NCBI GenBank assembly: GCA_027729865.1
Contig: JAQCBM010000001.1
Coordinates: forward strand, 1-26,786
Origin: Actinomycetota bacterium
GTDB taxonomy: Bacteria; Actinomycetota; Actinomycetes; S36-B12
Reading direction: 5' to 3'
Length of the DNA stretch: 26,786 bases
The notes beneath the pieces were generated by a model. The model did not search any database, was not told where the DNA came from, and saw only the letters and a program-made list of their open reading frames with translations. The position numbers and the translations under genes were made by a program. Of this stretch, positions 659 to 23,572 are shown piece after piece; positions within the stretch are counted from its first letter, which is position 1; every line of letters starts with the position of its first letter.

Positions 659-1390
659 TTAGCGGGTGCGCAGGATGACGAACTGGAAGCGCCCCTCGAC
701 AAAGTAGGTCTTGCTGTACGCGACGGGTTCACCGGATCGGTCGTAGTGCACCTGGTCGAGGAGAATCAGAAGTTCGTCAGCAACGTGATCTTCTGCGATA
801 GGCACATCGCTGCCGCGCACGGCGTGGATCTCGGCCAGTGCACGGTTGGGAGTCAAGCCGATTCGGTCGAGCACAGCGAACACTGATCCATTGCCCAGTG
901 ATACGTCCTCACTCGCTGGAACCAGGTTCCCCGGAATAGCGTCGATGGAAATGGCCACCACTTCGCCATCGGCGAGTATCTCGCGGTGCACGGCCACGAT
1001 CTCGTCGTTGGCGTTCACGTCCAAACGTGCGCACTCGTTCTCGTCGGCCTGCCGCCGAGTGAGCGAAATCCGACGCACCTTCGCATCCAGACCAAGTTCC
1101 TCGATCGTCTCGGTGATCGAGCGCAGTTCCTGAAGACCCGATCGGATTTGGCCGCCGAAGTCCACTACGAACATGCCCGAACCGTGACGGATGTCGACCA
1201 GCCCCTGGGATTCCAGCGACTTCGCCGCAGTGCGAACTGTTACGCGGGACACCCGATAGCGCTCGCACAACTCCGCCTCGCTGGGCAGCCGGGAGCCGGG
1301 CGAGAACTCACCAGCGACGATGCGCCGGCGTAGGTCCTCGGTGATCTGCCGGGCGAGCGGGGTGCGGGGGGTTGTGGTGGAACTGGGCAT
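659..1390 (-). CDS. GntR family (HutC/UTRA subfamily) transcriptional regulator
   Basis: GntR wHTH (LPSEAELCERYRVSRVTVRTA...GSGMFV) plus C-terminal UTRA-like domain (SKTYFVEGRFQF). Start trimmed to ATG at 1390, preceded by SD GGGAGGAG; divergent from mtnA. Confidence 0.92.
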   Translation of the reverse strand: MPSSTTTPRTPLARQITEDLRRRIVAGEFSPGSRLPSEAELCERYRVSRVTVRTAAKSLESQGLVDIRHGSGMFVVDFGGQIRSGLQELRSITETIEELGLDAKVRRISLTRRQADENECARLDVNANDEIVAVHREILADGEVVAISIDAIPGNLVPASEDVSLGNGSVFAVLDRIGLTPNRALAEIHAVRGSDVPIAEDHVADELLILLDQVHYDRSGEPVAYSKTYFVEGRFQFVILRTR

Positions 1391-1456: not shown

Positions 1457-2497
1457 GTGTCGGAGATCCGGGCGGTTCGCTGGGATGCGCACTCGATCGT
1501 GCTCATCGATCAGACGAAGCTGCCGGCGGTCGAGACCGCTATGGAGTGCGCCACCGTCGATCAACTGGTGGACGCGATCGTCCGCCTGGTGGTTCGCGGT
1601 GCTCCGGCACTCGGCGCGGTCGGTGGATACGGCGTGGCCCTGGCGATGATCCAAGGTGAGCGCGACGGCTGGGATTCCACGCGGTTGAACGCGGAGATCG
1701 ACCGGATTCGAAATGCGCGACCCACTGCGGTGAACCTGGCGTGGGGAGTGGACCGGGTGCGTCCGTTGGTAAGTGACGGCGTGGACGCAGTACTTGCCGA
1801 AGCGCAGCGCATCGCAGATGAAGACGAAGCCGCTAATCGTGAACTCTCACGCAAGGGCGCGGACTGGATTCTCGCGAACACCACGCGTCGTCCGTTGCGG
1901 GTGTTAACCCACTGCAACACCGGATCTCTGGCAACCACCGCGTGGGGAACGGCACTGGGCATCGTGCGCGAACTCCACGGGCGCGGTGAGATCGAAATGG
2001 TTTACGCCGATGAGACGCGGCCGTTGCTACAAGGATCGCGGTTGACCTCGTGGGAACTCACCCAAGACGGAATTCCGCACGTGGTGCAGGTGGATGGCGC
2101 TGCTGCGTCCACGCTGCTGCGCGGTTTGGTGGATGTAGCGATCATCGGCGCCGATCGCATTGCGCGTAACGGCGACACCGCGAACAAGATCGGTTCGGTG
2201 GGTGTGGCACTGGGTTGTTCGGCCGCTGAGGTGCCGTTTGTGGTCGCGGCTCCGTCGTCGACAGTGGACCTGTCCACGGCCTCGGGTGAATCGATCGAGA
2301 TCGAACTGCGCGATGGCGCAGAGGTGACCGAGTTCCATGCCGAATCCGTGGCGCCGGAGGGAGCCAAAGGATTCAACCCGGCTTTCGATGTGACACCCGC
2401 GCAGTACATCTCGGCCATCGTGACCGAGCAGGGAGTCGTGGAACCAGCCGCTGGTGTGCTGGTGGACTCCCTCGTGCCGGAAGGGGAACGTCCATGA
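1457..2497 (+). CDS. mtnA: S-methyl-5-thioribose-1-phosphate isomerase (MtnA / eIF-2B-like family)
   Basis: Motifs LIDQTKLP, VRGAPALG, RPTAVNL, LTHCNTGSLAT, ETRPLLQGSRLT, GADRIARNGDTANKIG, NPAFDVTP; SD GGAGG before GTG. Confidence 0.92.
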   Translation: MSEIRAVRWDAHSIVLIDQTKLPAVETAMECATVDQLVDAIVRLVVRGAPALGAVGGYGVALAMIQGERDGWDSTRLNAEIDRIRNARPTAVNLAWGVDRVRPLVSDGVDAVLAEAQRIADEDEAANRELSRKGADWILANTTRRPLRVLTHCNTGSLATTAWGTALGIVRELHGRGEIEMVYADETRPLLQGSRLTSWELTQDGIPHVVQVDGAAASTLLRGLVDVAIIGADRIARNGDTANKIGSVGVALGCSAAEVPFVVAAPSSTVDLSTASGESIEIELRDGAEVTEFHAESVAPEGAKGFNPAFDVTPAQYISAIVTEQGVVEPAAGVLVDSLVPEGERP

Positions 2498-4482
2498 GCA
2501 ACGAAGCCATGCCAACAGCGCTGACCGAACTCGTTCAACGCTCCAACCGCATCGGAGACGACCCTTCCCTCGTTGTCTACGGAGGCGGCAACACCTCTGC
2601 TAAAGGTGTGATCGTTGATCACCTCGGCCGCGAGCAACAGGTGATGTGGGTTAAGGGATCCGGTGCGGACATGCGCGGGTCGGTTCTTTCCGACTACCCG
2701 GGTCTGCGCCTTGGCGAACTCACCGCACTGCGTGAACGCGGTGAGATGAGCGATGAGGAGATGACCGACCTCGTTACCCGTGCGCTGTTAGATCCATCCT
2801 CTCGCCGGCCATCGATCGAAACGCTGCTGCATGCGTTCTTGCCGTTCACCCACATTGACCATGTGCACGCCGATGCGATCTGTGCGCTTACCAACCACGC
2901 TGAAGGCAAGAAGATCACCCTTGAGGCGCTTGGCGAGGGATTCGCCTACGTGGACTGGCTGCGTCCGGGTTTCGAGCTCAGCAAGATCGTCGGTGAGCTC
3001 TCGCACTACGAGGGAGTAGTGCTTGCGCACCACGGGCTGATCACCTGGGGGGATTCTTCCGCTGCGTGCTACCAGCGCACTATCGACGTGGTGGATCAAG
3101 CGCGCGAGTTCGTTGCGGCCAACCGTGTTGGCGCCGGACCGCCGCCGCGCCATGACGACATCCCCGAGGACGAATTGCGTCGATTGCTGTTGCACCTGCG
3201 CGGTGCGGTGAGCGCAACGGGTCACCGAGTCCTGCGGGTGGACGAACGATTGCGTGAGGTTGCCGATCATCCGCAGGTGGACAAGATCGTGGCCGGTGGT
3301 GTGTCGAGTGCCGACCACATGTTGCGCATCAAGCCGCGCTCCGTGGTTGTTCCCTCGGTTGATCACGTGAGCTCGTCTGTTGGGGCTTACCGCGATGAGT
3401 ACCTCGCGTATGTGGAACGCAACCACGAGTTGATGCCGGAGGGTTTCGGACCGCACGATCCGATGCCGCGCGTGATGCTGGTGCCGGGCGTGGGTGCGGT
3501 GACGACCGGAACCTCAGGCAAGGACGCTGCCGTTGCCGCGGACATCGCTGTACACACGCACGACGTTGCGCGGACCGTGCTCGAGGCATTCGGAACACCC
3601 GAGCCGTTGAGTGGTCGGGAGACTTTCCGCTTCGATTACTGGCCGATGGAGCTCTACAAGCTCACGCTTAAGCCCGCGCCGGCCGAGTTCGCCGGACGAA
3701 TCGTGATCGTGACGGGTGCGGCATCAGGGATCGGTCGCGGGATCGCGCTGGAGTTGGGTGCGCGGGGGTGCTCGTTGGTCCTTGCGGACCTCGATGCCAA
3801 TGGTCTGGACGAGGTTGCAGGTTCCCTCGTTTCCGCGGGCGCGCCTGAACCCGTGGTGGTGGCCGGAGATCAGTCCGACTCGTCGGTCACCTCAGCCACG
3901 GTTCACCGTGCGGTGCGGCACTTCGGTGGGCTGGACGGCGTGGTGCTGAACGCGGGCGTGGGCGTCTCTGGGACGTTGACGGAACTGACCGACGAGCAGT
4001 GGAACACCGCACTGCAGGTGAACCTGACGAGCGCGTTCTCACTCACCCGTGAATCGATGCGCGCGATGCAAGAACAGAGTCTAGGCGGTTCCCTGGTGTT
4101 CGTTGCGAGCAAGAACGCTTTCGGTCCCGGTGCCGGCTTTGGTGCTTACTCGGTGTCCAAGGCCGGGATGATCCAACTGATGCGCATCGCAGCACTCGAA
4201 GGTGGCAAGCACCAGATCCGATCCAATGCGATCAACCCCGACGCGGTATTCGACAACTCGAAGTTGTGGGAGGGGGGCTTGCGTGAAGAGCGTGCAGCAG
4301 CCCACGGCATCGCACCGGAGGAACTCGAAGACTTCTACGCCTCACGCAACTTGCTCGGTCGCCGAGTGACCACGTCAGACGTTGCGCAGTCCGCAGCCTT
4401 CTTGCTGTCCGATCGTTCCTCGCGGACCACGGGTTCGGTCCTTACGGTGGACGGCGGGGTAGCGGTCGCGTTCCCGCGGTAG
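2494..4482 (+). CDS. Bifunctional class II aldolase / short-chain dehydrogenase (RhaD-ADH, RhaEW/YuxG-like fusion)
   Basis: N-terminal class II aldolase: YGGGNTSAK, VKGSG, RPSIETLLH, HIDHVHAD, HHGLITWG (Zn-binding His). C-terminal SDR: TGAASGIG, NAG, YSVSK. ATGA overlap with the mtnA stop. Substrate not certain. Confidence 0.86.
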   Translation: MSNEAMPTALTELVQRSNRIGDDPSLVVYGGGNTSAKGVIVDHLGREQQVMWVKGSGADMRGSVLSDYPGLRLGELTALRERGEMSDEEMTDLVTRALLDPSSRRPSIETLLHAFLPFTHIDHVHADAICALTNHAEGKKITLEALGEGFAYVDWLRPGFELSKIVGELSHYEGVVLAHHGLITWGDSSAACYQRTIDVVDQAREFVAANRVGAGPPPRHDDIPEDELRRLLLHLRGAVSATGHRVLRVDERLREVADHPQVDKIVAGGVSSADHMLRIKPRSVVVPSVDHVSSSVGAYRDEYLAYVERNHELMPEGFGPHDPMPRVMLVPGVGAVTTGTSGKDAAVAADIAVHTHDVARTVLEAFGTPEPLSGRETFRFDYWPMELYKLTLKPAPAEFAGRIVIVTGAASGIGRGIALELGARGCSLVLADLDANGLDEVAGSLVSAGAPEPVVVAGDQSDSSVTSATVHRAVRHFGGLDGVVLNAGVGVSGTLTELTDEQWNTALQVNLTSAFSLTRESMRAMQEQSLGGSLVFVASKNAFGPGAGFGAYSVSKAGMIQLMRIAALEGGKHQIRSNAINPDAVFDNSKLWEGGLREERAAAHGIAPEELEDFYASRNLLGRRVTTSDVAQSAAFLLSDRSSRTTGSVLTVDGGVAVAFPR

Positions 4483-4488
4483 TTGCTC

Positions 4489-5592
4489 CTACTGGCGTAG
4501 GGCTTCGACCATCGCACGCGAGTTTGTTGCGAGATCACCGCGGTGGAGCGCTCCGCCGATGAGAAGCGCGACGTTATCTCCGTAGAACTCGGTGAGTTCA
4601 CCGAGGCGGTCCAACGTCATGCCACCGCCCGGGCTTGGCCACGATCGCGCCAGGTTGCCCAGGGGTGCGTGGCATAGGTCCTTGATCTGCGCGCATTCGG
4701 CGGGTGAGAACGAGAATCGGCCGCCGTAGTTCGGAAAGATCGAGATGTCCGCTCCCGCTAGGCGCATCAAGGTCCCGAAAAGGATGCCGTGATCGATGCC
4801 CTGATCAGGGTTGACAACGTTCGATCCCAGGAACGATGGATGCGCCATGATCGGTAAGGCCAGGGAATCGTCGTCGGCCAGCATGCGCATCGCGTCGAAT
4901 CCCGACACCCCAGGAAGCACCAAGAGTGCACCAGCGCCGGCCTCCTTGGCCTCGTGCGCGGCATCGACGATCCGATCGGCGGGAACGTTCAAACTCGGCA
5001 TGTAGAGCGCGTTGGTTCCGGCTTGTTCACGTGCTTGATTGACGTGCTCTGCGATGACTCGAGTGCGTTCCTTCCAACGCGCCCACGGTTGATCGGCAAG
5101 ACCGTGGTCGTCTTTGATGATGTGGAAGCCAGCGCGGGTGATGGTCGCGGCCATCTCGCCGAGTCCTTGCGGATCGGTGCCCATCGGCTTCACCGCGGTG
5201 CAGACAAGTGGACCGGTGGGGGCATCGACGAGCGCGCGAAGTCCGTCGATGCCAAAGCGCGGACCACGAAAATCCGCGAGGTAGGAATCCGGCAAACGTA
5301 GGCCGGTGACGCGAACGCCCGGGAAGAGCGACACATTCCCCCACAGCACATTCAGCAGTTGAGTGATGCCGCCGCCGGCAACGCCGGGGTTGTAGGAAAT
5401 CGTGACGTTGTTTCCGCTGATGTTCTCAATGCGACCGACGACGGTTTCCTGGATCCACTCCGGAGCCAGATCGAACGGGAATTCGATGGTCTGCTCGACG
5501 CGGATCGCATCGGCGACTTCCCTGGAATCTCCAACCGAGATTCGGTAGTCGACAACGATGCGGTCTGCTGAGCCCGACGCGCTCGTTGTCAT
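4489..5592 (-). CDS. RuBisCO-like protein (form IV), resembling the R. rubrum 5-methylthioribulose-1-phosphate 1,3-isomerase type
   Basis: VEQTIE, NVLWGNVSL, GPRFGIDGLR, AVKPMG, IKDDHGLADQ (KDDH rather than KDDE), AHP, FPNYGGRF, PGGGM, LIGG. 367 aa, shorter than a true RbcL. ATGA-coupled to the upstream transketolase subunit. Confidence 0.9.
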   Translation of the reverse strand: MTTSASGSADRIVVDYRISVGDSREVADAIRVEQTIEFPFDLAPEWIQETVVGRIENISGNNVTISYNPGVAGGGITQLLNVLWGNVSLFPGVRVTGLRLPDSYLADFRGPRFGIDGLRALVDAPTGPLVCTAVKPMGTDPQGLGEMAATITRAGFHIIKDDHGLADQPWARWKERTRVIAEHVNQAREQAGTNALYMPSLNVPADRIVDAAHEAKEAGAGALLVLPGVSGFDAMRMLADDDSLALPIMAHPSFLGSNVVNPDQGIDHGILFGTLMRLAGADISIFPNYGGRFSFSPAECAQIKDLCHAPLGNLARSWPSPGGGMTLDRLGELTEFYGDNVALLIGGALHRGDLATNSRAMVEALRQ

Positions 5593-6629
5593 AGTGCTTC
5601 GACCTTGGCGCTGCTGTGGGTGGCGGCAACGCGAACCGGTGCGAGGTCGGCTGCATCGATACCGAACGTGCGTCCAAGGGCTTGTTCGGCTGTGCGCACT
5701 AAAGACATGGCGTCGAGGTCGTACTCGCGCAGCAGGTAGGCCTGCGACGCGCCATGTGCGTAGGTGTCGGGCAGCCCGATGCGGTGCAGCGGAGCTGCAA
5801 TGCCGTTCTCGGCCATAACCTCGGCTACCGCCGAACCCAAGCCACCGGTGATCAGGTGGTTCTCCATGGTGATCACACCGCTACGCGCACTACGCAGCGC
5901 TGTGAGCACGGTGGGATCGGTGAAGGGCTTGAGGGTTGAGACGTGCAGATGCGTGACTCTTGCGCCTGCATCTTGCAGCGCAGGAATGGCACGAAGTGCC
6001 TCTTCGGTTTCGATCCCGGACGTGAGCACCACGAGGTCCGCCGGATCCTCGATCGAGCTACCGGCGACCGACAGCACTCGTGCGGTGTTGAAGCGCATCG
6101 GCTCGGGGAACAGGCGCGGCACTTCGCCACGCAGCATGCGGATGTAGACCGGACCGTCGATGGCGTGCGCAACATCAAGCACGCTCTCCACCTCGGTGGC
6201 GTCGCCGGTTTCCAGGATCGTCATGTTCGGGATAGTTCGCATCACTGCAACGTCGTCGATCGCCTGGTGGGTCACGCCACCGGGAGTGGTGATACCGGGC
6301 AGGAAGCCGACCAGGCGCACCTTCAGGTTCGGGTACGCGATGGACATCTGCAGTTGATCGAGTGGGCGGCGGTACAAGAACACTGCGAACGTGTGCAGCC
6401 ACGGTTCGAAACCTTCGCGAGCGAGCCCAGCAGCGAAGCCGAGCATGTTCTGTTCGGCCATGCCCATGGAGAAGAAGCGCTCGGGGTAGGTGTCGCGCCA
6501 CTTGCCGACTTCGCACGAGTTGGTGAGGTCCGCGCTGAGCACCACAACCTCGGGCTTATCGGCCGACCAACGAATGAAGTTCTCTACGTGTGGGCGGCTG
6601 ACGATCTCTACGTCCGTTTTCGCGCTCAT
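5589..6629 (-). CDS. Transketolase-family C-terminal (pyrimidine-binding + C-terminal domain) subunit
   Basis: LSADL, PERFFSMGMAEQNM, THQAIDD, GPVYIRMLR, TLKPF, ENHLITGGLGSAVAE; ATGA overlaps at both ends. Confidence 0.9.
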   Translation of the reverse strand: MSAKTDVEIVSRPHVENFIRWSADKPEVVVLSADLTNSCEVGKWRDTYPERFFSMGMAEQNMLGFAAGLAREGFEPWLHTFAVFLYRRPLDQLQMSIAYPNLKVRLVGFLPGITTPGGVTHQAIDDVAVMRTIPNMTILETGDATEVESVLDVAHAIDGPVYIRMLRGEVPRLFPEPMRFNTARVLSVAGSSIEDPADLVVLTSGIETEEALRAIPALQDAGARVTHLHVSTLKPFTDPTVLTALRSARSGVITMENHLITGGLGSAVAEVMAENGIAAPLHRIGLPDTYAHGASQAYLLREYDLDAMSLVRTAEQALGRTFGIDAADLAPVRVAATHSSAKVEAL

Positions 6630-7537
6630 GAAGTGGCTCCGATCAGAACGTCGTCGTAGAACTTCTGGTACTCGGCTCGTTCCTCAGGACCGGTGAAGCG
6701 CAGGTAGTGCAAAACAGGTCGACGATCATTGAGCAGCGGCACACCGCGCGCGGGATCGGTATACGCGAGGACGAAGTGCGGTTTGCCGGTGGGGCGTTCG
6801 AGCGATGAGGTGAGAGCCGCGATGTCGTGGCCATCGACCGAGTCCACACTCGCACCGAATGCCTTGAGTTTGGTTGCTAGCGGTTCGATTGTCATGACCG
6901 AATCCATCGGGCCATCGCACTGCGCGCGATTTACATCGACCACCACGCGCACCGTGTCGAGTCGATAGAAGGCAAGTGCCTGGATTGCTTCCCAGGTTTG
7001 CCCTTCTTGGAATTCACCGTCGCTCATGAACACGAACGTGCGACCGGTCTCCTTCTTCAAGCGCCGACCCAGGGCGATGCCGCCGGCGGTGGACAGCGCT
7101 TGCGCGAGGGACCCTGTGGTGGTTTCGAAGCCGGGCGAGTGTTCGGCGCCGATCATCTCGACGGTGGAACCGTCTTTGTTGAACTGATCGAGTGCGGCCT
7201 CGTCCAGGCGCCCGGCCTCGATGAGTGCTGCGTAGACCACCAGGGCGTAGTGCGCGGGGGAGACGATCAACCGGTCGAGGTCTGGACCCGGCTCGCCGTG
7301 GAATACCCCGCCGGATACGCGCGGGGCGTCTGGTCCGGGAACAGCCTCGATGGCAGGCGGGTGCAGCGGCCCGTCGGTGGGGGCGAGCTTGAGCACCGAG
7401 GCGTAGAGGGCGGCGAGCAGTTCGGCTGAGGAACAGGCTTGGCTGAGATAGCCGCCGTTGTTGGCCAGCACGTGGGCCAGGACCCGGCGGCGGATGCCCG
7501 CGGCCATGAGTGTGGGTTCGATTGTCGATTGAGGCAC
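6626..7537 (-). CDS. Transketolase-family N-terminal (ThDP-binding) subunit
   Basis: TGSLAQALS, ThDP motif [13 protein letters not shown]...DVN, VDGHD. Start set at GTG 7537 because a -35/-10 pair sits 6 nt upstream; ATG 7507 is the alternative. The longer ORF-track start at 7837 overlaps xylB. Confidence 0.87.
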
Positions 7538-10428: not shown

Positions 10429-10485
10429 CCTGGTCTCGCTAGGCGCGAGACTCGTGTTCCCTGGTCTCGCTAGGCGCGAGACTCG
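10429..10485. repeat. Tandem duplication of a 26-bp hairpin-forming unit (31-bp period)
   Basis: CCTGGTCTCGCTAGGCGCGAGACTCG at 10429-10454 and 10460-10485. Each copy contains the stem GTCTCGC-N5-GCGAGAC. The second copy contains the stop codon of the 515-aa gene. Confidence 0.9.
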
Positions 10486-12017
10486 AACATCCCCAGCAGG
10501 GCTGCCACCCCCAGCACCGAGCGCGGTGCGTAAGCCGCACGCCACAGTCCGCCGTGGTTCGCGCCTCTGGCGAACAGATCCATGGGATTGGTGAGTGGGG
10601 TGGCCGGGTTGGCTGACGACGCCGGGTTGCGCAGATCGTGCACGAGCATGGCCGCCATCAAAGTGGTTGAGGTCGATGGGTCAAAAACCTCCACACCGAA
10701 CTTGTCGGCACCTGCGTACGCAGCGGCGAGCGCTCGGTTGCGGACAACGGAGCGCGTGCGCGTTGCTGGAGCGAGGTTCAGCGAGACGGGAATGCCGTCC
10801 GCACGAGCGGCGAGCGCCCGCCACCGTTGGATGCGCTTGGCCAAGATGTAGTTCGGTCCTTGCTGGGGAATGATCGAATCATTCAAGCCGATGCGTTGAC
10901 CGCTGAGCGTTGTGTATGTGGTCGGGTAATTGGGTTCGAACTGGTTCGCAATTCGCAGCGGGGCCTGCAGCAGACCACCGATACCTCTATTACCCCAGCG
11001 CCGCTTGCTCTCCTCGACGCATTCGATGGGAACGACGAACACGTCGGTGGGAGTGGCCAGGAACGCCAGCGTTAGGTCGGAGCGCTCAGCTGCAAGGGAA
11101 GTTGTGATCGCATCGCTGGCCACGGACAAAAGCGCATGCGTTGCTCCGTCGGCATACGCATAAGTGCCGAGAACAAAGGGTTGGTCGATCTCGGATAGCC
11201 AGGTGCGGACCTCGGGTGCTTGTGTCAGAAGGTCGGCACCGGCTGATGCGCAGATCGTGGCGTCGTCGTCGGGATGAACATCCCCGCCCACCACGAAAGG
11301 TGGATTTCCCTCGGCATCCAGGGAGATTGGAATGCGCAATGTTCCAGCAGTGCTGCGGGTGATGGAAGTCAGGTGCTCCCAGATCGCCGGGCGCGGGAGA
11401 TCAACCGCGTGCACACGAGCACCCCAGCGAAGAAGTGATCGGGTGGGTGCCATCTCCGCGCCGGCTCCGAGCAAGGCGATGTCGATATCGCGTAGGTCGA
11501 GCCAATCGGGGTTGTCCATGACGAGGTGGATCGCTGCACCGAAGGACGGTTCGGCTATTCCACGTTGGACCCACGAGTCGACCTGACGTCGCAGTTCGTC
11601 GCCGAATAAGCGGCGTCCTTTGTAGGGGACAGAAAGGTCTTCATCCCGGGTGGATCGTCCTCTGACGGTTACCGAAGCCAGCCCGGGTGCAGTGAATTCC
11701 GTGAAGGCTTCGCGTAGCGATACCTCGTTCCCGTTTCGACGGAAGGTGAAACGCTGGTCGGTCGATGCCAGTCCGTGCCGGGAAATCGACAGCGCGTTCT
11801 CCGTCGATTGCGCAGCAGCTAGGACTATGTCGCGTAATGGGGCGATGTATCCCTTGCGCCAATCGCGAGTGTGCTCGATTCGAGGAGTAATGGCTGGATC
11901 CACTGCGCGGATCGAATCGGCGAAGATTGCTCGCCCGGTTGCCGAAGTGCTGCGCCGATCATCCCCGCCTAGCGGGAAACACACACCGTCCACGTTCACG
12001 GAGCGGGGATCGGGCAT
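10470..12017 (-). CDS. Hypothetical protein with Rossmann/SDR-like motifs
   Basis: 515-aa ORF; leaderless signature TATTCT-N6-ATG; IDIALLGAGAE glycine-rich motif, VHAVD, and YxxxK (NYILAK). Function unknown. Confidence 0.75.
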   Translation of the reverse strand: MPDPRSVNVDGVCFPLGGDDRRSTSATGRAIFADSIRAVDPAITPRIEHTRDWRKGYIAPLRDIVLAAAQSTENALSISRHGLASTDQRFTFRRNGNEVSLREAFTEFTAPGLASVTVRGRSTRDEDLSVPYKGRRLFGDELRRQVDSWVQRGIAEPSFGAAIHLVMDNPDWLDLRDIDIALLGAGAEMAPTRSLLRWGARVHAVDLPRPAIWEHLTSITRSTAGTLRIPISLDAEGNPPFVVGGDVHPDDDATICASAGADLLTQAPEVRTWLSEIDQPFVLGTYAYADGATHALLSVASDAITTSLAAERSDLTLAFLATPTDVFVVPIECVEESKRRWGNRGIGGLLQAPLRIANQFEPNYPTTYTTLSGQRIGLNDSIIPQQGPNYILAKRIQRWRALAARADGIPVSLNLAPATRTRSVVRNRALAAAYAGADKFGVEVFDPSTSTTLMAAMLVHDLRNPASSANPATPLTNPMDLFARGANHGGLWRAAYAPRSVLGVAALLGMFESRA

Positions 12018-17204: not shown

Positions 17205-18137
17205 TTAGGAGCGCGGCAGTTGGTGCTGCTCTACCGCATAGGCACGCGGACCGTCGGGTGTCCATTCCCGATGGATGATCACCATGCCACCGGGAGCAAG
17301 GCGGGTATCCCACAACGGATCGGCATGGGTGTCTTCCGGTGTGAGGTTCAACCCCGCAGCGAGAGCGGAGAGCACAGTCGGCAGGACGGGCCGATGAGTG
17401 CAGACAACCATGGGTGCTGGATCGACTAGTAACTCGGTGACGCGTTTCTCAGTAACCGAAGGATCGAATGCGTGCCCCGATTCACTGATGGCTGCCTCGA
17501 GCTGCACATCCACGCCGATCGATTTCGCGTAGCGGTTAACCGTTGACAGACACCTCTTGAACGGCGAGGAATACACCCGTTCGATTCCATAGGCATCAAG
17601 AACGTCGGTGAGTCGCTTGGCTTCACCCCTACCTCTGCCCGACAGGGGTCGATCGGCGTCGTCATCTCCATCGAAGTCAGCGCGCTTCATCGCCTTTGCG
17701 TGCCGCAGGATGATCAGCGGAGTTGTGGGGGGCGCGGTGATTGCGTGCTTCACTAAGGCAGCGTCGTCCGGGTAGGTCAAGAAATCCTCGGCACCGGACA
17801 CTGGCACCCAGCGGATCTCGTCTACTTCCTCATCGGGGGCGAATCCTTCGTCACCTCGCACGCGACCGATCCAGTAGTCGACGACCTTGTTCTGACCGTC
17901 CGCTGTGTAGTGCAAGCTGGGTAGGCGCGTTGAGAGCGAAACCTGGAAGCCGGTCTCTTCGTCGCATTCGCGCACGGCAGCGCACGGCAGTGTCTCGCCG
18001 GCATCCACCTTGCCTTTGGGAAGCGACCAGTCTTTGCGGCTGGGTCGATGGACTGCCAGGAAGTGCTGATCGGGGTCCATTTCCGGGTGGAAGACCACCA
18101 CTCCGGCGGCGCGGATCGGTTCAGTTTCCTTGGCCAT
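17205..18137 (-). CDS. mutT1: Nudix hydrolase - histidine phosphatase fusion (MutT1-like)
   Basis: WSLPKGKVDAGETLPCAAVRECDEETG Nudix box; C-terminal LRHAKA...RPLS...SSPFKRC phosphatase fold; TGATG overlap with the CHAD stop; downstream of ppk1. Confidence 0.85.
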   Translation of the reverse strand: MAKETEPIRAAGVVVFHPEMDPDQHFLAVHRPSRKDWSLPKGKVDAGETLPCAAVRECDEETGFQVSLSTRLPSLHYTADGQNKVVDYWIGRVRGDEGFAPDEEVDEIRWVPVSGAEDFLTYPDDAALVKHAITAPPTTPLIILRHAKAMKRADFDGDDDADRPLSGRGRGEAKRLTDVLDAYGIERVYSSPFKRCLSTVNRYAKSIGVDVQLEAAISESGHAFDPSVTEKRVTELLVDPAPMVVCTHRPVLPTVLSALAAGLNLTPEDTHADPLWDTRLAPGGMVIIHREWTPDGPRAYAVEQHQLPRS

Positions 18138-19645
18138 CAGCGAAGTCCGAGTGAGTGAGCTTGGTGGGCGATATCTGGCCAACGCTTCACGAACGCGCGA
18201 ACGTCGTCGTCGCCCGCCGCTGCGCAGGTGGCTGAGTGAAGCCCCAACCGGTAGGCAATCGGCGAGGGCGCCGATTCGGCGATCTCCTCAAGCGTGTGGA
18301 TGGACACCTGTGCATCTTGCCGGGATCCGAGCGTGTCGGTGACCCAAGCCAGAGATTTCCCCAAGCGGCGGTAGCCCTCACCGAAGATGGGAGCAACCGC
18401 TTCGGCTGCGTAACGGGCCTTCTTGGCGTTAATGCGAATGCGGTGCCACTGTTCCGCGGGAGTGTTGAGGTCTGAACCCTTCACGCTACGACGCAGTTTC
18501 CGCCAGGGGGCGTCCACGCATTCGAGAATCGCGGCGCCAACCGGTTCGAAGGCGCGCGGACCCACTGGTGGCTCGCTGACTAGGAGGATCAGATCCTCGA
18601 TCAGGAAATCGTGTCGGTCGCTGCGAAGTGCAGCAAGGGCACTGGAGCGCGCGGCCCGAAGTCTTTGCTCGAGATATTCGACAACGAACGCGCACGCATC
18701 GTGGTCGTGGATGTCCTCACTCAAGGCGGCGAGTTGGACCTCGGTGTCACGCACCTGGCCGAGTTCGGTGGCCAGCCATGCCAATTCCTCGCGCAGGAAT
18801 GACGTCGTCTCGGTGTCCAGCAGGGGCCGGAAGGTGGTGAGTGCTGCGCGAAGTCGTCTACAGGCGACCCGCATTTGGTGCACGGAGTCAGGGAGGTTGC
18901 GCCGTACACCAACATCCGCCATCAATAGATCACGCACGTAACGGCTGAAGATTGCCTGCAGGGCATTGATCGCAGGGGCATCAAGGTCCGGGTAATCCAA
19001 GATGGGAACGTCGGGTGGATCACCAGCGCGGCGACCAAGCGCCTGCGCAGCCTTGCTGAGGGAACTGGGTTCGGCCCCAGCGCTCAACAGCGCTGCGCTG
19101 ACGACGCTGGCAAGTTCCGCACCGGCCCGCGAATCGTCAAGCAATTCGACTTCCACTTCTCGGAACACTGTGCTCGGAGTCGATCCGGGAGTGCCCACAC
19201 TTACCCGATCATCAACCACTTCGACGAGGTGATCGTCGGTTTCACCCTTGATCAGGAACGGCGTGCGCTCGGTATTCACCTGAGCCATAGCGGTGATGTC
19301 CTGGCGACGAATCAATGGCGCGGCGATGGAAGCTAGTTCTACCGGCACGGCATCTGCTGGCTTATCGACACGGATTTCATCTCGAGAACTCGAGCCGGCA
19401 GATGGTGCGGTCGGCACTTTCATGTGCCAGCCATCGTCACCGCCTCCAGTGCGGTGGCGAAGGGTGATACCCCACCTCAGCAGGTTCAGGTTGGGGGTGT
19501 CGTAGTACGTGGCAGACATCGACCGAACAGGCTCTCGCGAGAACTGAGTGTCCGCGCCGCGAAGGAGCTCCTCCAGATCCAACGTCACATCCGCGGGAAC
19601 CCGGTACTTGAACTCGATTTCCCGGTGCTCGGTAACGCCGCTCAC
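18137..19645 (-). CDS. CYTH + CHAD domain protein (polyphosphate-associated)
   Basis: N-terminal EIEFKY (ExExK), YYDTP..L...[16 protein letters not shown]; CHAD motifs [12 protein letters not shown] and [12 protein letters not shown]; in an operon with ppk1. Confidence 0.9.
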
Positions 19646-21798
19646 GCGCTCCCCAGCGCACTCACGCGCTTGCTCTTCTGGCTGATCAGATACTCCTGCA
19701 GATCACGCAGGGGATTTCCGTCCTCACCCATCAGTTTGCGGTGCCACTGGCCGTTCACGTCAAGATCCCAAGCCGCGGTGTCCTCCGCGAAGCCAAGATC
19801 GAAGAGGTCGTATACCTCCGATATCTGCTCGGGATCGGCCAAACTCACGAGTGTTTCCACGCGGCGATCCAAGTTGCGGTGCATCAAATCGGCAGAGCCG
19901 ATCCACACCGAGTGGTTTCCACCGTTGGCGAAGCAGTAGGCACGCGAGTGCTCGAGGAAGCGTCCGAGGATGCTGCGCACGCGAATGGTGTCGCTGATAC
20001 CGGGCATTCCTGGGCGCAGTGCACAGATTCCGCGGACCCACACCTCAATTGGCACACCGGCGGACGACGCGCGATAGAGAGCGTCGATGATCTCCTCGTC
20101 GACCAGGGCGTTGCACTTGAAGCGAATTCCCGATGTGCGACCTGCCAACTTGTGTTCGATTTCCCGATCGATGCGTTCGATGAGCCCAGCGCGCACCGAG
20201 TGTGGTGCAACGAGGAACCGCTTGTAATCGGTATTGCGGGAGTATCCGGACAGCACGTTAAATAGGTTGGAAACGTCCTCACCCACATCGGGATTCGACG
20301 TCAGTAGGCCGAAGTCCTCATAGAGCCTGGCGGTCTTGGGGTGGTAGTTGCCGGTGCCGATATGGCAGTAACGGCGCAGTTGGTCGCCGTCGTTGCGCAC
20401 CACCATCGAGAGTTTGCTGTGGGTCTTCAAGCCAACCAGCCCATAGACCACATGCACACCGGCTTGCTCGAGCTTGCGCGCCCATTCAATGTTGTTCTGC
20501 TCATCGAATCGGGCCTTGATCTCCACGAGCGCGAGGACCTGCTTACCCTCTTCAGCCGCGCGGATGAGCGCGACAACGATCGGGGAATCGCCTGAGGTCC
20601 GGTAGAGCGTCTGCTTGATGGCCAGCACGTTCGGGTCCACGGCTGCCTGCTCCAAGAACAGCTGGACGCTGGTGGAGAAGGAGTCGTATGGGTGGTGCAG
20701 CAGCACATCGCGCTCGCGCACGATCGACAGGATGTCCGGAGCCTTCGCGCTCTCGACCTCACTCAGTTGCCTCGAAGTCTTAGGTACGAACTTTCGCTGC
20801 TTGAGGTCGTCGCGATCGAGGCCGACGACGCTCCACAGTCCGGTCATGTCGAGCGGGCCAGGCAGCCGGAATACTTCCTGTTCGGAGATGTCGAGTTCGC
20901 TCACCAGCAGTTCGAGGACGTGTGGATCTATGTCCTCTTCCACTTCGAGTCGAACCGGCGGCCCGAAACGGCGTCGAACGAGCTCACGCTCAAGCGCCTT
21001 GAGTAAATTTTCGGCGTCGTCCTCTTCCACCTCGACGTCTTCGTTTCGTGTTACACGGAATGCGTGGTGCTCGCAGATCTCCATACCGGGGAAGAGTTCG
21101 TCGAGATGTGCGGCGATGACGTCCTCGAGTGGCACGAAGCGTTGCGGTCCTACTTCCACGAAGCGCGGCAACAGCGGTGGCACCTTCACGCGTGCGAAGA
21201 GTTCATTCCCGGTGGCCGGATTACGAACGACGACGGCCAGGTTCAGTGAGAGTCCGCTGATGTAGGGGAAGGGGTGGGACGGATCGACCGCCAGTGGCGT
21301 GAGGATCGGGAAGACCTTGTTGTCGAAGAACCGATCCATCTCGGTCTTCTCAACGGGCGTGAGTTCCTCCCAGCGCAGCAGCCCGATGCCCTGGGCCTCG
21401 AGCTCGGGCCGGATTTCGTGGCGGAAGATGTCGGCCTGGCGAATCTGTAATTCGTACGCGCGCGCCCAGATAGCTTCGAGCACCTCTCGTGGGGTGTAGC
21501 CGCTGGATGAGCGCACGGCAATCCCGGTGGCGATGCGCCGCTTGAGACCGGCCACCCGCACCATGAAGAACTCGTCGAGGTTGCTGGCGAAGATTGCCAG
21601 GAACTTGGTGCGATCAAGAAGGGGGAGTTCGGGATCCGTACTCAGTTCTAGAACACGTTGATTGAAGGCGAGCCAGGACAACTCACGATCAAGGAAGCGA
21701 TCGGCAGGCAGGTCCTCCTCCGCGACGCGGATGCGCTCCACGGCGTCCTCGGAAATGGGAGATAGCGCGCTCGTGTCAGAAAACTCCTGCGTGGTCAC
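19642..21798 (-). CDS. ppk1: Polyphosphate kinase 1
   Basis: [56 protein letters not shown] (phospho-His), [30 protein letters not shown]. Confidence 0.97.
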
Positions 21799-21849: not shown

Positions 21850-22824
21850 TCAGACTCCTGACCGGTACATGACATCCGTATCCCAGCGGACGAACCCCAG
21901 GGACTCGTAGAGGCGGATCGCGGCCAAGTTGGAAGCATTGACGAACAACATGACCTGGTCCAGACCCAAGCGCCTGAGGTGATGCAGCCCCGCAAGGGTG
22001 AGAGAGCGTCCCAGACCCGTGCCCTGCCAGTTGGGGGCAACCGCCAGCACGTACACCTCGCCGATTGCTTCGTGGGTGTGAGCCTGCTGGTGGAGCCCGG
22101 TTCCGTGCTCATGACCCACATGCTCGTGACCCACATGGCGGTGCGCACCATGCACCTTGGTCCAGTGGAATCCGGCGAGCTCTCGGTTCTCGTCCCACGC
22201 CAGCAGGAATCCCGCGGGATCGAACCACGCTTCCTTCTCTCTCAGTTGCAGGTCTTCGAGCGTCCACGATCCCTGGTCGGGTAATTGCGCGAAAGCCTGC
22301 GCATTCAGCGTTAGAACCGGCTGTTCGTCGACGCCCACCTCGAACGTGGTGATATCGATTCCTGCGGGAAACCGCGCTTCGGGAAGGGATGCGTGCAGTG
22401 AGCGACGCATCTGCCACAGCGTTCGGTGTCTTTCGAATTTCAACGCTTGTGCGAGTTTGGTCGCGGCGATGTGTTCTCCATGTGCCCATAGCCGCAAACG
22501 CCCATCAGCGATTCCCAAGAGAGACGTCACCAGTTCGCGACCCACACCGCGCTGTCGATGTTGCGGATGCACCACGAGTTCGGCGCTGGGCCCTTCGACT
22601 GCATCTGTTGTGTCCAGGTGCGCATATCCAATGAGGTCTCCGGATGGTCCGCGCGCCAACAGGTGCGTGGATTCCTCGTCACCACCATGAATGACGTGTA
22701 GCCACACGTGTTCACTCAACGGACGCACGCCGTCGGATTCCGTTGCGGCGGACAGCAGGTCTTGCAGTTCGTGAACCTGCGAGTGGTCCAGATGATCGAG
22801 GGTGGAGAGCGAGATCTCGCTCAT
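21850..22824 (-). CDS. mshD: Mycothiol synthase (tandem GNAT acetyltransferase)
   Basis: DGVRPLSEH, ELVVHPQHRQRGVG, WAHG, PDQGSW, GFHWTKVH, GEVYVLAV, GLGRSL; directly downstream of glnR as in other actinobacteria; start trimmed to ATG 22824. Confidence 0.92.
   Translation of the reverse strand: MSEISLSTLDHLDHSQVHELQDLLSAATESDGVRPLSEHVWLHVIHGGDEESTHLLARGPSGDLIGYAHLDTTDAVEGPSAELVVHPQHRQRGVGRELVTSLLGIADGRLRLWAHGEHIAATKLAQALKFERHRTLWQMRRSLHASLPEARFPAGIDITTFEVGVDEQPVLTLNAQAFAQLPDQGSWTLEDLQLREKEAWFDPAGFLLAWDENRELAGFHWTKVHGAHRHVGHEHVGHEHGTGLHQQAHTHEAIGEVYVLAVAPNWQGTGLGRSLTLAGLHHLRRLGLDQVMLFVNASNLAAIRLYESLGFVRWDTDVMYRSGV
22106..22135. repeat. 15-bp tandem duplication inside mshD encoding HVGHE x2
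   Basis: TGCTCATGACCCACA / TGCTCGTGACCCACA adjacent, 14/15 identical. Confidence 0.8.
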
Positions 22825-22828
22825 GGTG

Positions 22829-23572
22829 CTACGCCTGTTCGGTGACGTCGGCGGTTGCGTGTTCATCCAAGGTGGCGATGGTCTGCGCATCGGCCCGTTC
22901 GGGAACGAACCGGTAGCCGACGTTGCGAACGGTGCCGATCAGTGCCTCGTACTCCGGTCCGAGTTTCGCGCGCAGGCGGCGCACATGAACGTCCACGGTA
23001 CGCGTGCCACCGAAGTAGTCGTAACCCCACACTTCCTGTAGCAAAACCGCGCGGGTGAAAACACGGCCCGGGTGGTGGGCCAGGAACTTCAGCAGTTCGA
23101 ATTCTTTGAATGTGAGATCCAGGCTGCGTCCGCGCAGGCGAGCGCTGTAGCTGGCTTCGTCGATATGCAGATCACCCGAGCGGATTTCCTCGGGCTCATC
23201 CGGAGTGGTGCTGCCCGACGTTTGTCCGTTGCGGGAAACGGCGAGTCGGAGCCGCGCCTCAACCTCGGCCGGGGAAGTGGTGTCGACCAGGATCTCGTCC
23301 ATTCCCCAGTCCCACTGGATGGCGGGCAACCCGCCCTCGGTGGTGACCACGATGACCGGGATCCCCACCCCGGTTTGCCGCAGGAGGCGGGTGAGGCCCC
23401 GCACCGCTGGGAGGTCACGGCGGCCGTCCACCAGCAGCGCGTCGGCTTCAGGTGCAGCCAGGAGAGCGGTCGGTTCGGCGGCCATGATCCGTACGTGGTG
23501 GGCCAGAAGCGCCAAGGAGGGGAGAACCTCGGCGGAGGACTCCATCGCGCGGGTCAGCAGGATCAGTCGCAT
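22829..23572 (-). CDS. glnR: GlnR, orphan OmpR-family nitrogen-metabolism response regulator
   Basis: Atypical receiver [11 protein letters not shown]...LLVDGRRDL...TEGGL...DWG.DEIL...[11 protein letters not shown]; w[27 protein letters not shown]...[20 protein letters not shown]; SD AGGAGG; adjacent to mshD. Confidence 0.88.

Follow-up and report, generated by a model that had tools for sequence, protein, structure and literature searches.

The stretch of DNA analysed here (the window; 26,786 nucleotides, positions 1-26,786 of contig JAQCBM010000001.1 in the metagenome-assembled genome (MAG) GCA_027729865.1 of a freshwater/marine actinobacterium) encodes a RuBisCO-like protein (RLP) of the DeepYkr type, co-translated with a split transketolase-like enzyme made of the subunits TktN and TktC. 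We place the RLP in a characterised family and regard its pairing with a remodelled transketolase as a new pathway variant. The reading preferred for the whole system, to which a probability of roughly two in three is given, is that the RLP is a 1,3-isomerase of 5-methylthioribulose 1-phosphate (MTRu-1P) and that its product is passed to TktN/TktC instead of to a cupin. A first-pass annotation of this DNA had already proposed the co-transcribed transketolase as the enzyme that receives the product; the proposal draws strong backing from the conservation of the three-gene set and from the pattern in which transketolase and cupin stand in for each other, and we still infer it from these. No description of the RLP-transketolase pairing was found in the literature searched, of which some subscription papers were beyond reach.

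Among PDB sequences the RLP is closest to RLP1 of Rhodopseudomonas palustris (3qfw; 204 bits, E = 3.7e-59), followed by 4nas (123 bits), the Photo RLPs (approximately 117 bits), MtnW (103-113 bits) and 3nwr (76 bits). Experiments in vivo and in vitro have established R. palustris RLP1 as an MTRu-1P 1,3-isomerase, and the orthologous RLP of Rhodospirillum rubrum is also a proven 1,3-isomerase of this compound, acting in the MTA-isoprenoid shunt (MTA, 5'-methylthioadenosine; PMC5893883). An AlphaFold2 model of the window protein (55 homologues, pLDDT 95.7) has 3qfw as its top Foldseek match (E = 8e-36, TM 0.86/0.89) and adopts the fold of the RuBisCO large subunit, shortened in the N-terminal domain; its 367 amino acids lie within the DeepYkr range of approximately 365-380, and it shares with the R. 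rubrum and R. palustris proteins this fold, the short length (approximately 370 amino acids) and the KP/KDDH/HP/GGRF/GGG/GG signature. The protein matches Pfam RuBisCO_large (PF00016) with E = 3e-17, and its relatives number in the thousands, with 278 cluster representatives at E <= 1e-30. In a quick IQ-TREE phylogeny (LG+G4, with Shimodaira-Hasegawa-like approximate likelihood ratio test (SH-aLRT) support) rooted with a separate set of RuBisCO-family genes drawn from 301 Bacillota genomes (two of form I, one of form III and four bona fide MtnW), the window RLP falls into a short-RLP clade with 100% SH-aLRT support together with P0202, the representative nearest to 3qfw (330 bits), whose gene is directly followed by a cupin gene; the two lie in different subclades of this clade. 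MtnW forms a separate, well-supported clade, and forms I and III also fall outside. The scores against the MtnW models (NF007095, 179 bits versus a cut-off of 409; TIGR03332, 123 versus 514), the OiaX model (NF042437, 73 versus 700) and the NCBIfam models of true RuBisCO including forms II and III (34-94 versus 438-497) are all far too low for membership. The first-pass assignment to the R. rubrum type rather than to MtnW or true RuBisCO is therefore borne out (204 bits for 3qfw versus at most 123 for the others, with Foldseek and the rooted tree in agreement), and the phylogeny that it had called for, built here with MtnW and RuBisCO references, gives no grouping with YkrW, nor does the apionate-pathway model OiaX come near its cut-off.

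The motifs quoted in the first-pass annotation are all present in the translation (VKPMG at 134-138, KDDHGLADQ at 160-168, FPNYGGRF at 286-293 and PGGGM at 321-325), and the alignment to 3qfw conserves K-P, I-K-D-D-H-G-L-A-D-Q, A-H-P, F-P-N-Y-G-G-R-F, P-x-G-G and L-I-G-G. Column conservation was compared between the transketolase-linked and cupin-linked sides of the family across 194 members. K135, K160-D161-D162, H251-P252, R292-F293, G323-G324 and G346, as well as N86 and E33/Q34/E37, are at least 90% conserved on both sides, H163 reaches 85-92%, and G346-G347 is equally conserved in both groups. A search for specificity positions in the same 194 members found no column cleanly separating the two groups, Q168 and H350/R351 being the only subfamily-biased positions. 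This sharing of catalytic columns argues for the same reaction on both sides. The window RLP is without the K177, E204, R295 and K334 set of true RuBisCO, having M137, H163, P252 and R292 at the positions that correspond in spinach numbering. It also has a longer loop after His251 which is missing from 3qfw.

The RLP gene is the final gene of a tktN-tktC-RLP operon on the minus strand, a strand on which the first-pass annotation was silent:

4489-5592, minus strand: RLP gene, ATG at 5592-5590 to TAG at 4491-4489, 367 amino acids, DeepYkr type
5589-6629, minus strand: tktC, transketolase-like C-terminal subunit (pyrimidine-binding and C domains), 346 amino acids, from Pfam and NCBIfam
6626-7537, minus strand: tktN, transketolase-like N-terminal (thiamine diphosphate (ThDP)-binding) subunit, approximately 303 amino acids, from Pfam; start codon GTG at 7537 or ATG at 7507
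5589-5592, minus strand: ATGA in which the stop codon of tktC overlaps the RLP start codon, read from the sequence; translational coupling
6626-6629, minus strand: second four-base overlap, between tktN and tktC, from the open reading frame (ORF) coordinates

The co-transcription claimed at first pass is thus confirmed by the ATGA overlap. The three-gene set is conserved well beyond the host. RLP relatives are encoded at 63 loci from species-representative genomes, the nearest being those of Candidatus Nanopelagicales MAGs, which agrees with the actinobacterial host proposed earlier; tktN, tktC and the RLP gene are adjacent in approximately 50 of the 63, often with mtnA beside them, and these sets come from six phyla (Actinomycetota, Chloroflexota, Bacillota, Pseudomonadota (Woeseiaceae), Myxococcota and Goldbacteria). 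In one Woeseiaceae operon the order is regulator-phosphorylase-mtnA-tktN-tktC-RLP, and in Anaerolineae it is RpiR-mtnA-DeoC/LacD aldolase-short-chain dehydrogenase (SDR)-class II aldolase-tktN-tktC-RLP. Within the sample of 301 Bacillota genomes, tktC adjoins the RLP gene in eight of nine short-RLP loci, the ninth having a methylsulfurylase-type cupin. A metagenomic contig (L106:2663-5812, P0159) encodes a natural RLP::TktN fusion of 730 amino acids followed by a separate tktC, a gene order reversed relative to the usual one; no transketolase fusion was present among the three proteins found in a search for longer fused RLP forms.

Further variation was seen around these loci. In the Anaerolineae operons the aldolase and SDR are separate, unfused genes, and the DeoC/LacD-family aldolase encoded between mtnA and the SDR/aldolase genes (L054:5348-6145, L051:2399-3199) is possibly LsrF-like. 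Just upstream of the three genes, two Bacillota loci (L104:1953-3511, L105:1219-2783) encode a nucleosidase-like protein of the PNP_UDP_1 type together with a member of the MqnA/MqnD family (VitK2_biosynth), which may point to a connection with the futalosine route, another source of leftover adenosyl-derived sugars. In a close relative (L025:10001-11102; G231:C3:1142290-1143391, on a 1.4-Mb contig) the RLP (89-93% identical) is split into two frames with a break at approximately residue 245; the split marks a pseudogene or else reflects an indel error of long-read sequencing. Nine loci (L003, L004, L005, L008, L009, L018, L033, L038 and L043) bear the public titles 'Rubrivirga sp.', 'Bifidobacterium breve' or 'Bifidobacterium sp.'; they are 52-91% identical to, and syntenic with, those of Nanopelagicales, and the titles look like mislabelled taxonomy.

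The partner of the RLP was followed across the order in a 301-genome sample with two models, a custom hidden Markov model (HMM) built for the RLP-linked cupin (alignment A5) and one for TktC (A4). The RLP is patchy, occurring in 29 of the 301 genomes and 5 of the 47 genera, with 8 of the 9 sampled genomes of the window's own genus carrying it, and the RLP module behaves as an accessory one in the order. Most RLP-bearing genomes (23/29) have the RLP-linked transketolase only and three have the cupin only; both partners occur in one, which has two RLP genes, and neither in two, where the RLP lies on short contigs. The RLP-linked transketolase (above 600 bits) was found without an RLP in none of the 301 genomes. 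No cupin, mtnB or mtnX was seen in Pfam scans of all large ORFs of the window, as the first-pass annotation had noted, and the absence of the usual cupin partner extends to the whole MAG, where the custom HMM found nothing significant (best E = 0.026; 8e-4 with alignment A5); the same search scores 132-144 bits in sister genomes. This specific model was used because cupins are ubiquitous, which had made a generic Pfam Cupin_2 search of five genomes uninformative.

Sister genomes show the alternative arrangement directly. In the complete chromosome G002, which has no RLP-linked transketolase, the cupin adjoins metY, and the RLP is 79% identical to the transketolase-adjacent RLPs of related Planktophila. 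In two further genomes (G054 and G141) an operon of a metY-like sulfhydrylase, a CoA-binding protein and a cupin occupies the exact tktN-tktC slot, beside the RLP, the aldolase/SDR gene and mtnA. The substrate of the cupin is 1-methylthioxylulose 5-phosphate, the product of the RLP, and MetY-type enzymes fix methanethiol into methionine (PMC5893883). The exchange of cupin and metY for the transketolase therefore argues that the RLP makes 1-methylthioxylulose 5-phosphate and that the transketolase-like enzyme disposes of it, and is the strongest evidence for both; TktN/TktC most likely takes this same compound, and the cupin/metY evidence favours the methylthio compound as main substrate. The cupin methylsulfurylase (Rru_A2000 in R. 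rubrum, RPA2170 in R. palustris) would share its pathway slot with TktN/TktC, and in sister Nanopelagicales genomes it takes the same chromosomal slot beside the RLP. However, fold and chemistry are unrelated, the cupin removing the methylthio group in a thiol-dependent reaction to give 1-deoxyxylulose 5-phosphate (DXP), and the next enzyme here differs from that of R. rubrum and R. palustris. RLP-cupin fusions make up 27 of 134 family representatives, with none among the transketolase-adjacent Nanopelagicales RLPs, and partner switches have happened several times in the family.

The three-gene set of a MetY-like pyridoxal phosphate-dependent sulfhydrylase, a small CoA_binding_2 protein and a methylsulfurylase-type cupin recurs in cupin-type Nanopelagicales (L107:819-3077 and L108:2754-5004 in G054 and G141, where it directly adjoins the RLP, and L112:4177-6469 in G002). 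Two ideas on the partners were set aside. Planktophila RLPs apparently without a transketolase (L030, L034 and others) were considered as stand-alone DXP makers, which was rejected given the cupin beside metY in G002. The idea that the transketolase took the cupin's place for want of glutathione, which an actinobacterial host should lack, loses force from the use of the cupin in sister actinobacteria.

The closest structure to TktN/TktC is the split transketolase of Carboxydothermus hydrogenoformans (6yaj/6yak; 133 and 197 bits). As in this enzyme and in DXP synthase, the ThDP/Mg motif (SDGE...N) and the cofactor-activating Glu (M/AEQ) are retained in the RLP-linked proteins. Two active-site changes, His-to-Tyr and Asp-to-Gly, set them apart. 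At the SGHPG position of transketolases the window TktN has NNGGYLSQ (nGGYls aligned to nSGHpg in 6yak), and at the GEDGPTHQ position TktC has GFLPGITTPGGVTHQ. The corresponding motifs, each at least 90% conserved, are NNGGY-SQ in all 43 RLP-linked TktN sequences and TPGG-THQ in all 49 RLP-linked TktC sequences, so that the linked homologues read GGY for SGH and TPGGVTHQ for GEDGPTHQ, unlike the split transketolase. In the E. coli and yeast enzymes the donor C1 hydroxyl is bound by the His that is lost here, and the C4/C2 hydroxyl by the lost Asp. A donor bearing CH2-SCH3 or CH3 at C1 would fit such an altered site. A further difference is the C-terminal HSxAKxEAL tail of TktC (window 5589-5630), which is at least 90% conserved in RLP-linked homologues across phyla and might reach an active site or a partner; no such tail is known from ordinary transketolases. 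TktC scores 147 bits against the DXS model and 45 bits against the bacterial transketolase model. Since the MAG encodes a canonical Tkt (753 bits) and a canonical Dxs (579 bits) elsewhere, TktN/TktC is a dedicated enzyme and not the housekeeping one. A second split transketolase in the MAG (G000:C394:970-2558; N half 159 bits) is much nearer to canonical transketolase than the RLP-linked one.

The proposed pathway starts from the MtnA product MTRu-1P, which the RLP would convert into 1-methylthioxylulose 5-phosphate by 1,3-proton transfer; 5-deoxyribulose 1-phosphate is probably also a substrate and would give DXP. TktN/TktC, as a co-translated two-subunit ThDP enzyme, would then consume the RLP product in the place of the cupin methylsulfurylase. 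Here ThDP would attack C2 and cleavage between C2 and C3 would release glyceraldehyde 3-phosphate, leaving a ThDP-bound C2 unit, from which the enamine may expel methanethiolate, as phosphoketolase expels water, to leave acetyl-ThDP. The methanethiol could be re-fixed into methionine by MetY. That TktN/TktC is in this sense a 'methylthio-phosphoketolase' or C-S lyase, splitting 1-methylthioxylulose 5-phosphate into glyceraldehyde 3-phosphate, methanethiol and an acetyl unit, and forming with the RLP a third route for salvaging MTA sulfur, one that needs neither cupin nor thiol, is a tentative idea and on balance a doubtful one.

Past the RLP stop, the operon converges on a second operon on the plus strand, which is flanked by a regulator:

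4483-4488: six-base spacer between the convergent stops of the aldolase/SDR and RLP genes, read from the sequence
2494-4482, plus strand: class II aldolase/SDR fusion, 662 amino acids, from Pfam and NCBIfam
1457-2497, plus strand: mtnA, 5-methylthioribose 1-phosphate isomerase, TIGR00512 at 395 bits versus a cut-off of 279
659-1384, minus strand: GntR/UTRA regulator adjoining mtnA, from Pfam; syntenic in relatives

The aldolase/SDR fusion scores just under the RhaD_aldol-ADH cut-off and shows synteny with the RLP in Nanopelagicales, in loci of the transketolase type and the cupin type alike. With MtnA it resembles the dihydroxyacetone phosphate (DHAP) shunt, and it is probably a DHAP-shunt-like branch acting on the same MtnA product as the RLP. 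In this respect the locus is like R. palustris, where a DHAP shunt coexists with the RLP branch (PMC5893883). The true start of the regulator probably lies well inside the ORF at 659-1654, since its Pfam GntR and UTRA domains begin only at residue 100.

The genome supplies part of the expected surroundings. MtnA is present in the MAG as a single copy and MetY is present, and the RLP resembles other DeepYkr RLPs both in its strongly supported clade and in its association with mtnA and, at a score under the curated cut-off, an MTA-phosphorylase-like gene. With curated models, MtnB, MtnD/ARD and sulfite/nitrite reductase were not found in the MAG or its close relatives, MtnK was not found in the host's own genus, and spermidine synthase was not found in the MAG and four relatives; MtnX is absent from the window by Pfam scans and was not searched for genome-wide. 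Classical methionine salvage is therefore not in evidence. MtnW/YkrW of Bacillus, the 2,3-diketo-5-methylthiopentyl-1-phosphate enolase, shares with the window RLP the superfamily and the theme of MTA salvage; however, it belongs to a separate clade, its models score the RLP far under their cut-offs, and its partners MtnB and MtnD are those not found here. The cell probably depends on reduced sulfur. As spermidine synthase was not found, the cell may have little MTA of its own, the true source being perhaps 5'-deoxyadenosine or MTA taken up from outside; MTA may also come from minor sources, and 5'-deoxyadenosine, which the same RLP chemistry would turn into DXP, may have a substantial role.

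Several points weigh against an MTRu-1P isomerase feeding TktN/TktC. The characterised RLPs lie in another subclade and are only approximately 34-45% identical to the window protein, and the transketolase-linked RLPs do not form a clean clade, support being 89-93% with a cupin-fused group nested among them. The elimination of methanethiol is reasoning by analogy only. The MTAP-like phosphorylase of the MAG scores 243 bits, under the curated cut-off of 275, and the possible scarcity of MTA, with no spermidine synthase found in the five genomes, counts here as well. Lastly, the MAG (2.4 Mb, 416 contigs) is 82% complete, so that absences from it are provisional.

The possible scarcity of MTA leads to the most serious of the other explanations, which we consider unlikely, that the main substrate is 5-deoxyribulose 1-phosphate derived from 5'-deoxyadenosine, the by-product that radical S-adenosylmethionine (SAM) enzymes leave, and that the RLP would turn this substrate straight into DXP. 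DXP or its ribulo epimer would next be taken up by the DXS-like transketolase, for instance with cleavage to glyceraldehyde 3-phosphate and an acetaldehyde equivalent. With spermidine synthase not found in five genomes MTA output may be low, and radical-SAM enzymes are known to be universal; the preference of TktC for the DXS model (147 versus 45 bits) points the same way, as does the loss of the His at the site of transketolases for the donor C1 hydroxyl, a group missing from 1-deoxy and 1-methylthio donors alike. Against this, the orthologous RLPs of sister genomes pair with a methylsulfurylase-type cupin and a MetY-like sulfhydrylase, an association that is meaningful only for a methylthio substrate, and the canonical Dxs leaves no need for a further supply of DXP. 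The two explanations are not mutually exclusive, because known MtnP and MtnA enzymes take both substrates.

A role in degrading an ordinary pentose or nucleoside sugar, in which MtnA would convert ribose 1-phosphate into ribulose 1-phosphate and the RLP would convert this into xylulose 5-phosphate for transketolase and the pentose phosphate pathway, seems improbable. MtnA-family enzymes can reportedly isomerise ribose 1-phosphate (Nakano et al. 2013), and tktN has xylB (TIGR01312, 404 bits) and a ROK regulator divergently upstream of it, an arrangement whose synteny extends to the closest relatives. However, this adjacency is limited to the nearest relatives and missing in the other lineages bearing the three-gene set, a normal transketolase is already encoded in the MAG, the linked one is without the His and Asp by which ordinary ketose and aldose substrates are gripped, and its interchange with cupin and metY would be meaningless for ribulose 1-phosphate. 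Slightly less probable still is that the likeness to RLP1 is misleading and that the RLP performs another reaction of the superfamily (enolisation, decarboxylation or transcarboxylation) on another substrate. RLP functions have diverged repeatedly, as in the MtnW enolase and the apionate-pathway decarboxylases (PMC6302742), identity to characterised RLP1 is only approximately 34-45%, and Q168, H350 and R351 are subfamily-biased. Yet the invariant active-site columns are all common to the cupin-linked RLPs, RLPs of 79% identity work alongside a cupin whose substrate is the isomerase product, and the MtnW and OiaX models score far under their cut-offs.

The remainder of the window holds other features of note. 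A 515-amino-acid ORF at 10470-12017 on the minus strand has no Pfam or NCBIfam match. A polyphosphate module at 17205-21798, also on the minus strand, comprises Ppk1 (718 amino acids), a CYTH-CHAD protein (502 amino acids) and a NUDIX/histidine-phosphatase fusion (325 amino acids). At 21850-22890, again on the minus strand and adjoining GlnR, a 346-amino-acid protein carries a pair of GNAT domains and is a possible mycothiol-synthase-like enzyme, an identity which, if true, bears on the low-molecular-weight thiol of the host cells.

The constant pairing of RLP and transketolase in six phyla, and in freshwater bacteria that are among the most abundant, picks out a step in the recycling of SAM by-products, and from the natural exchange of cupin/MetY for transketolase around near-identical RLPs the substrate of TktN/TktC can be predicted sharply. 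If TktN/TktC does release methanethiol from 1-methylthioxylulose 5-phosphate, or otherwise disposes of this compound, it would represent a new type of reaction in ThDP enzymology and would explain the recovery of reduced sulfur in organisms where sulfite reductase was not found. Should it prove to be a C-S lyase, abundant aquatic actinobacteria without sulfite reductase could live on sulfur derived from MTA.

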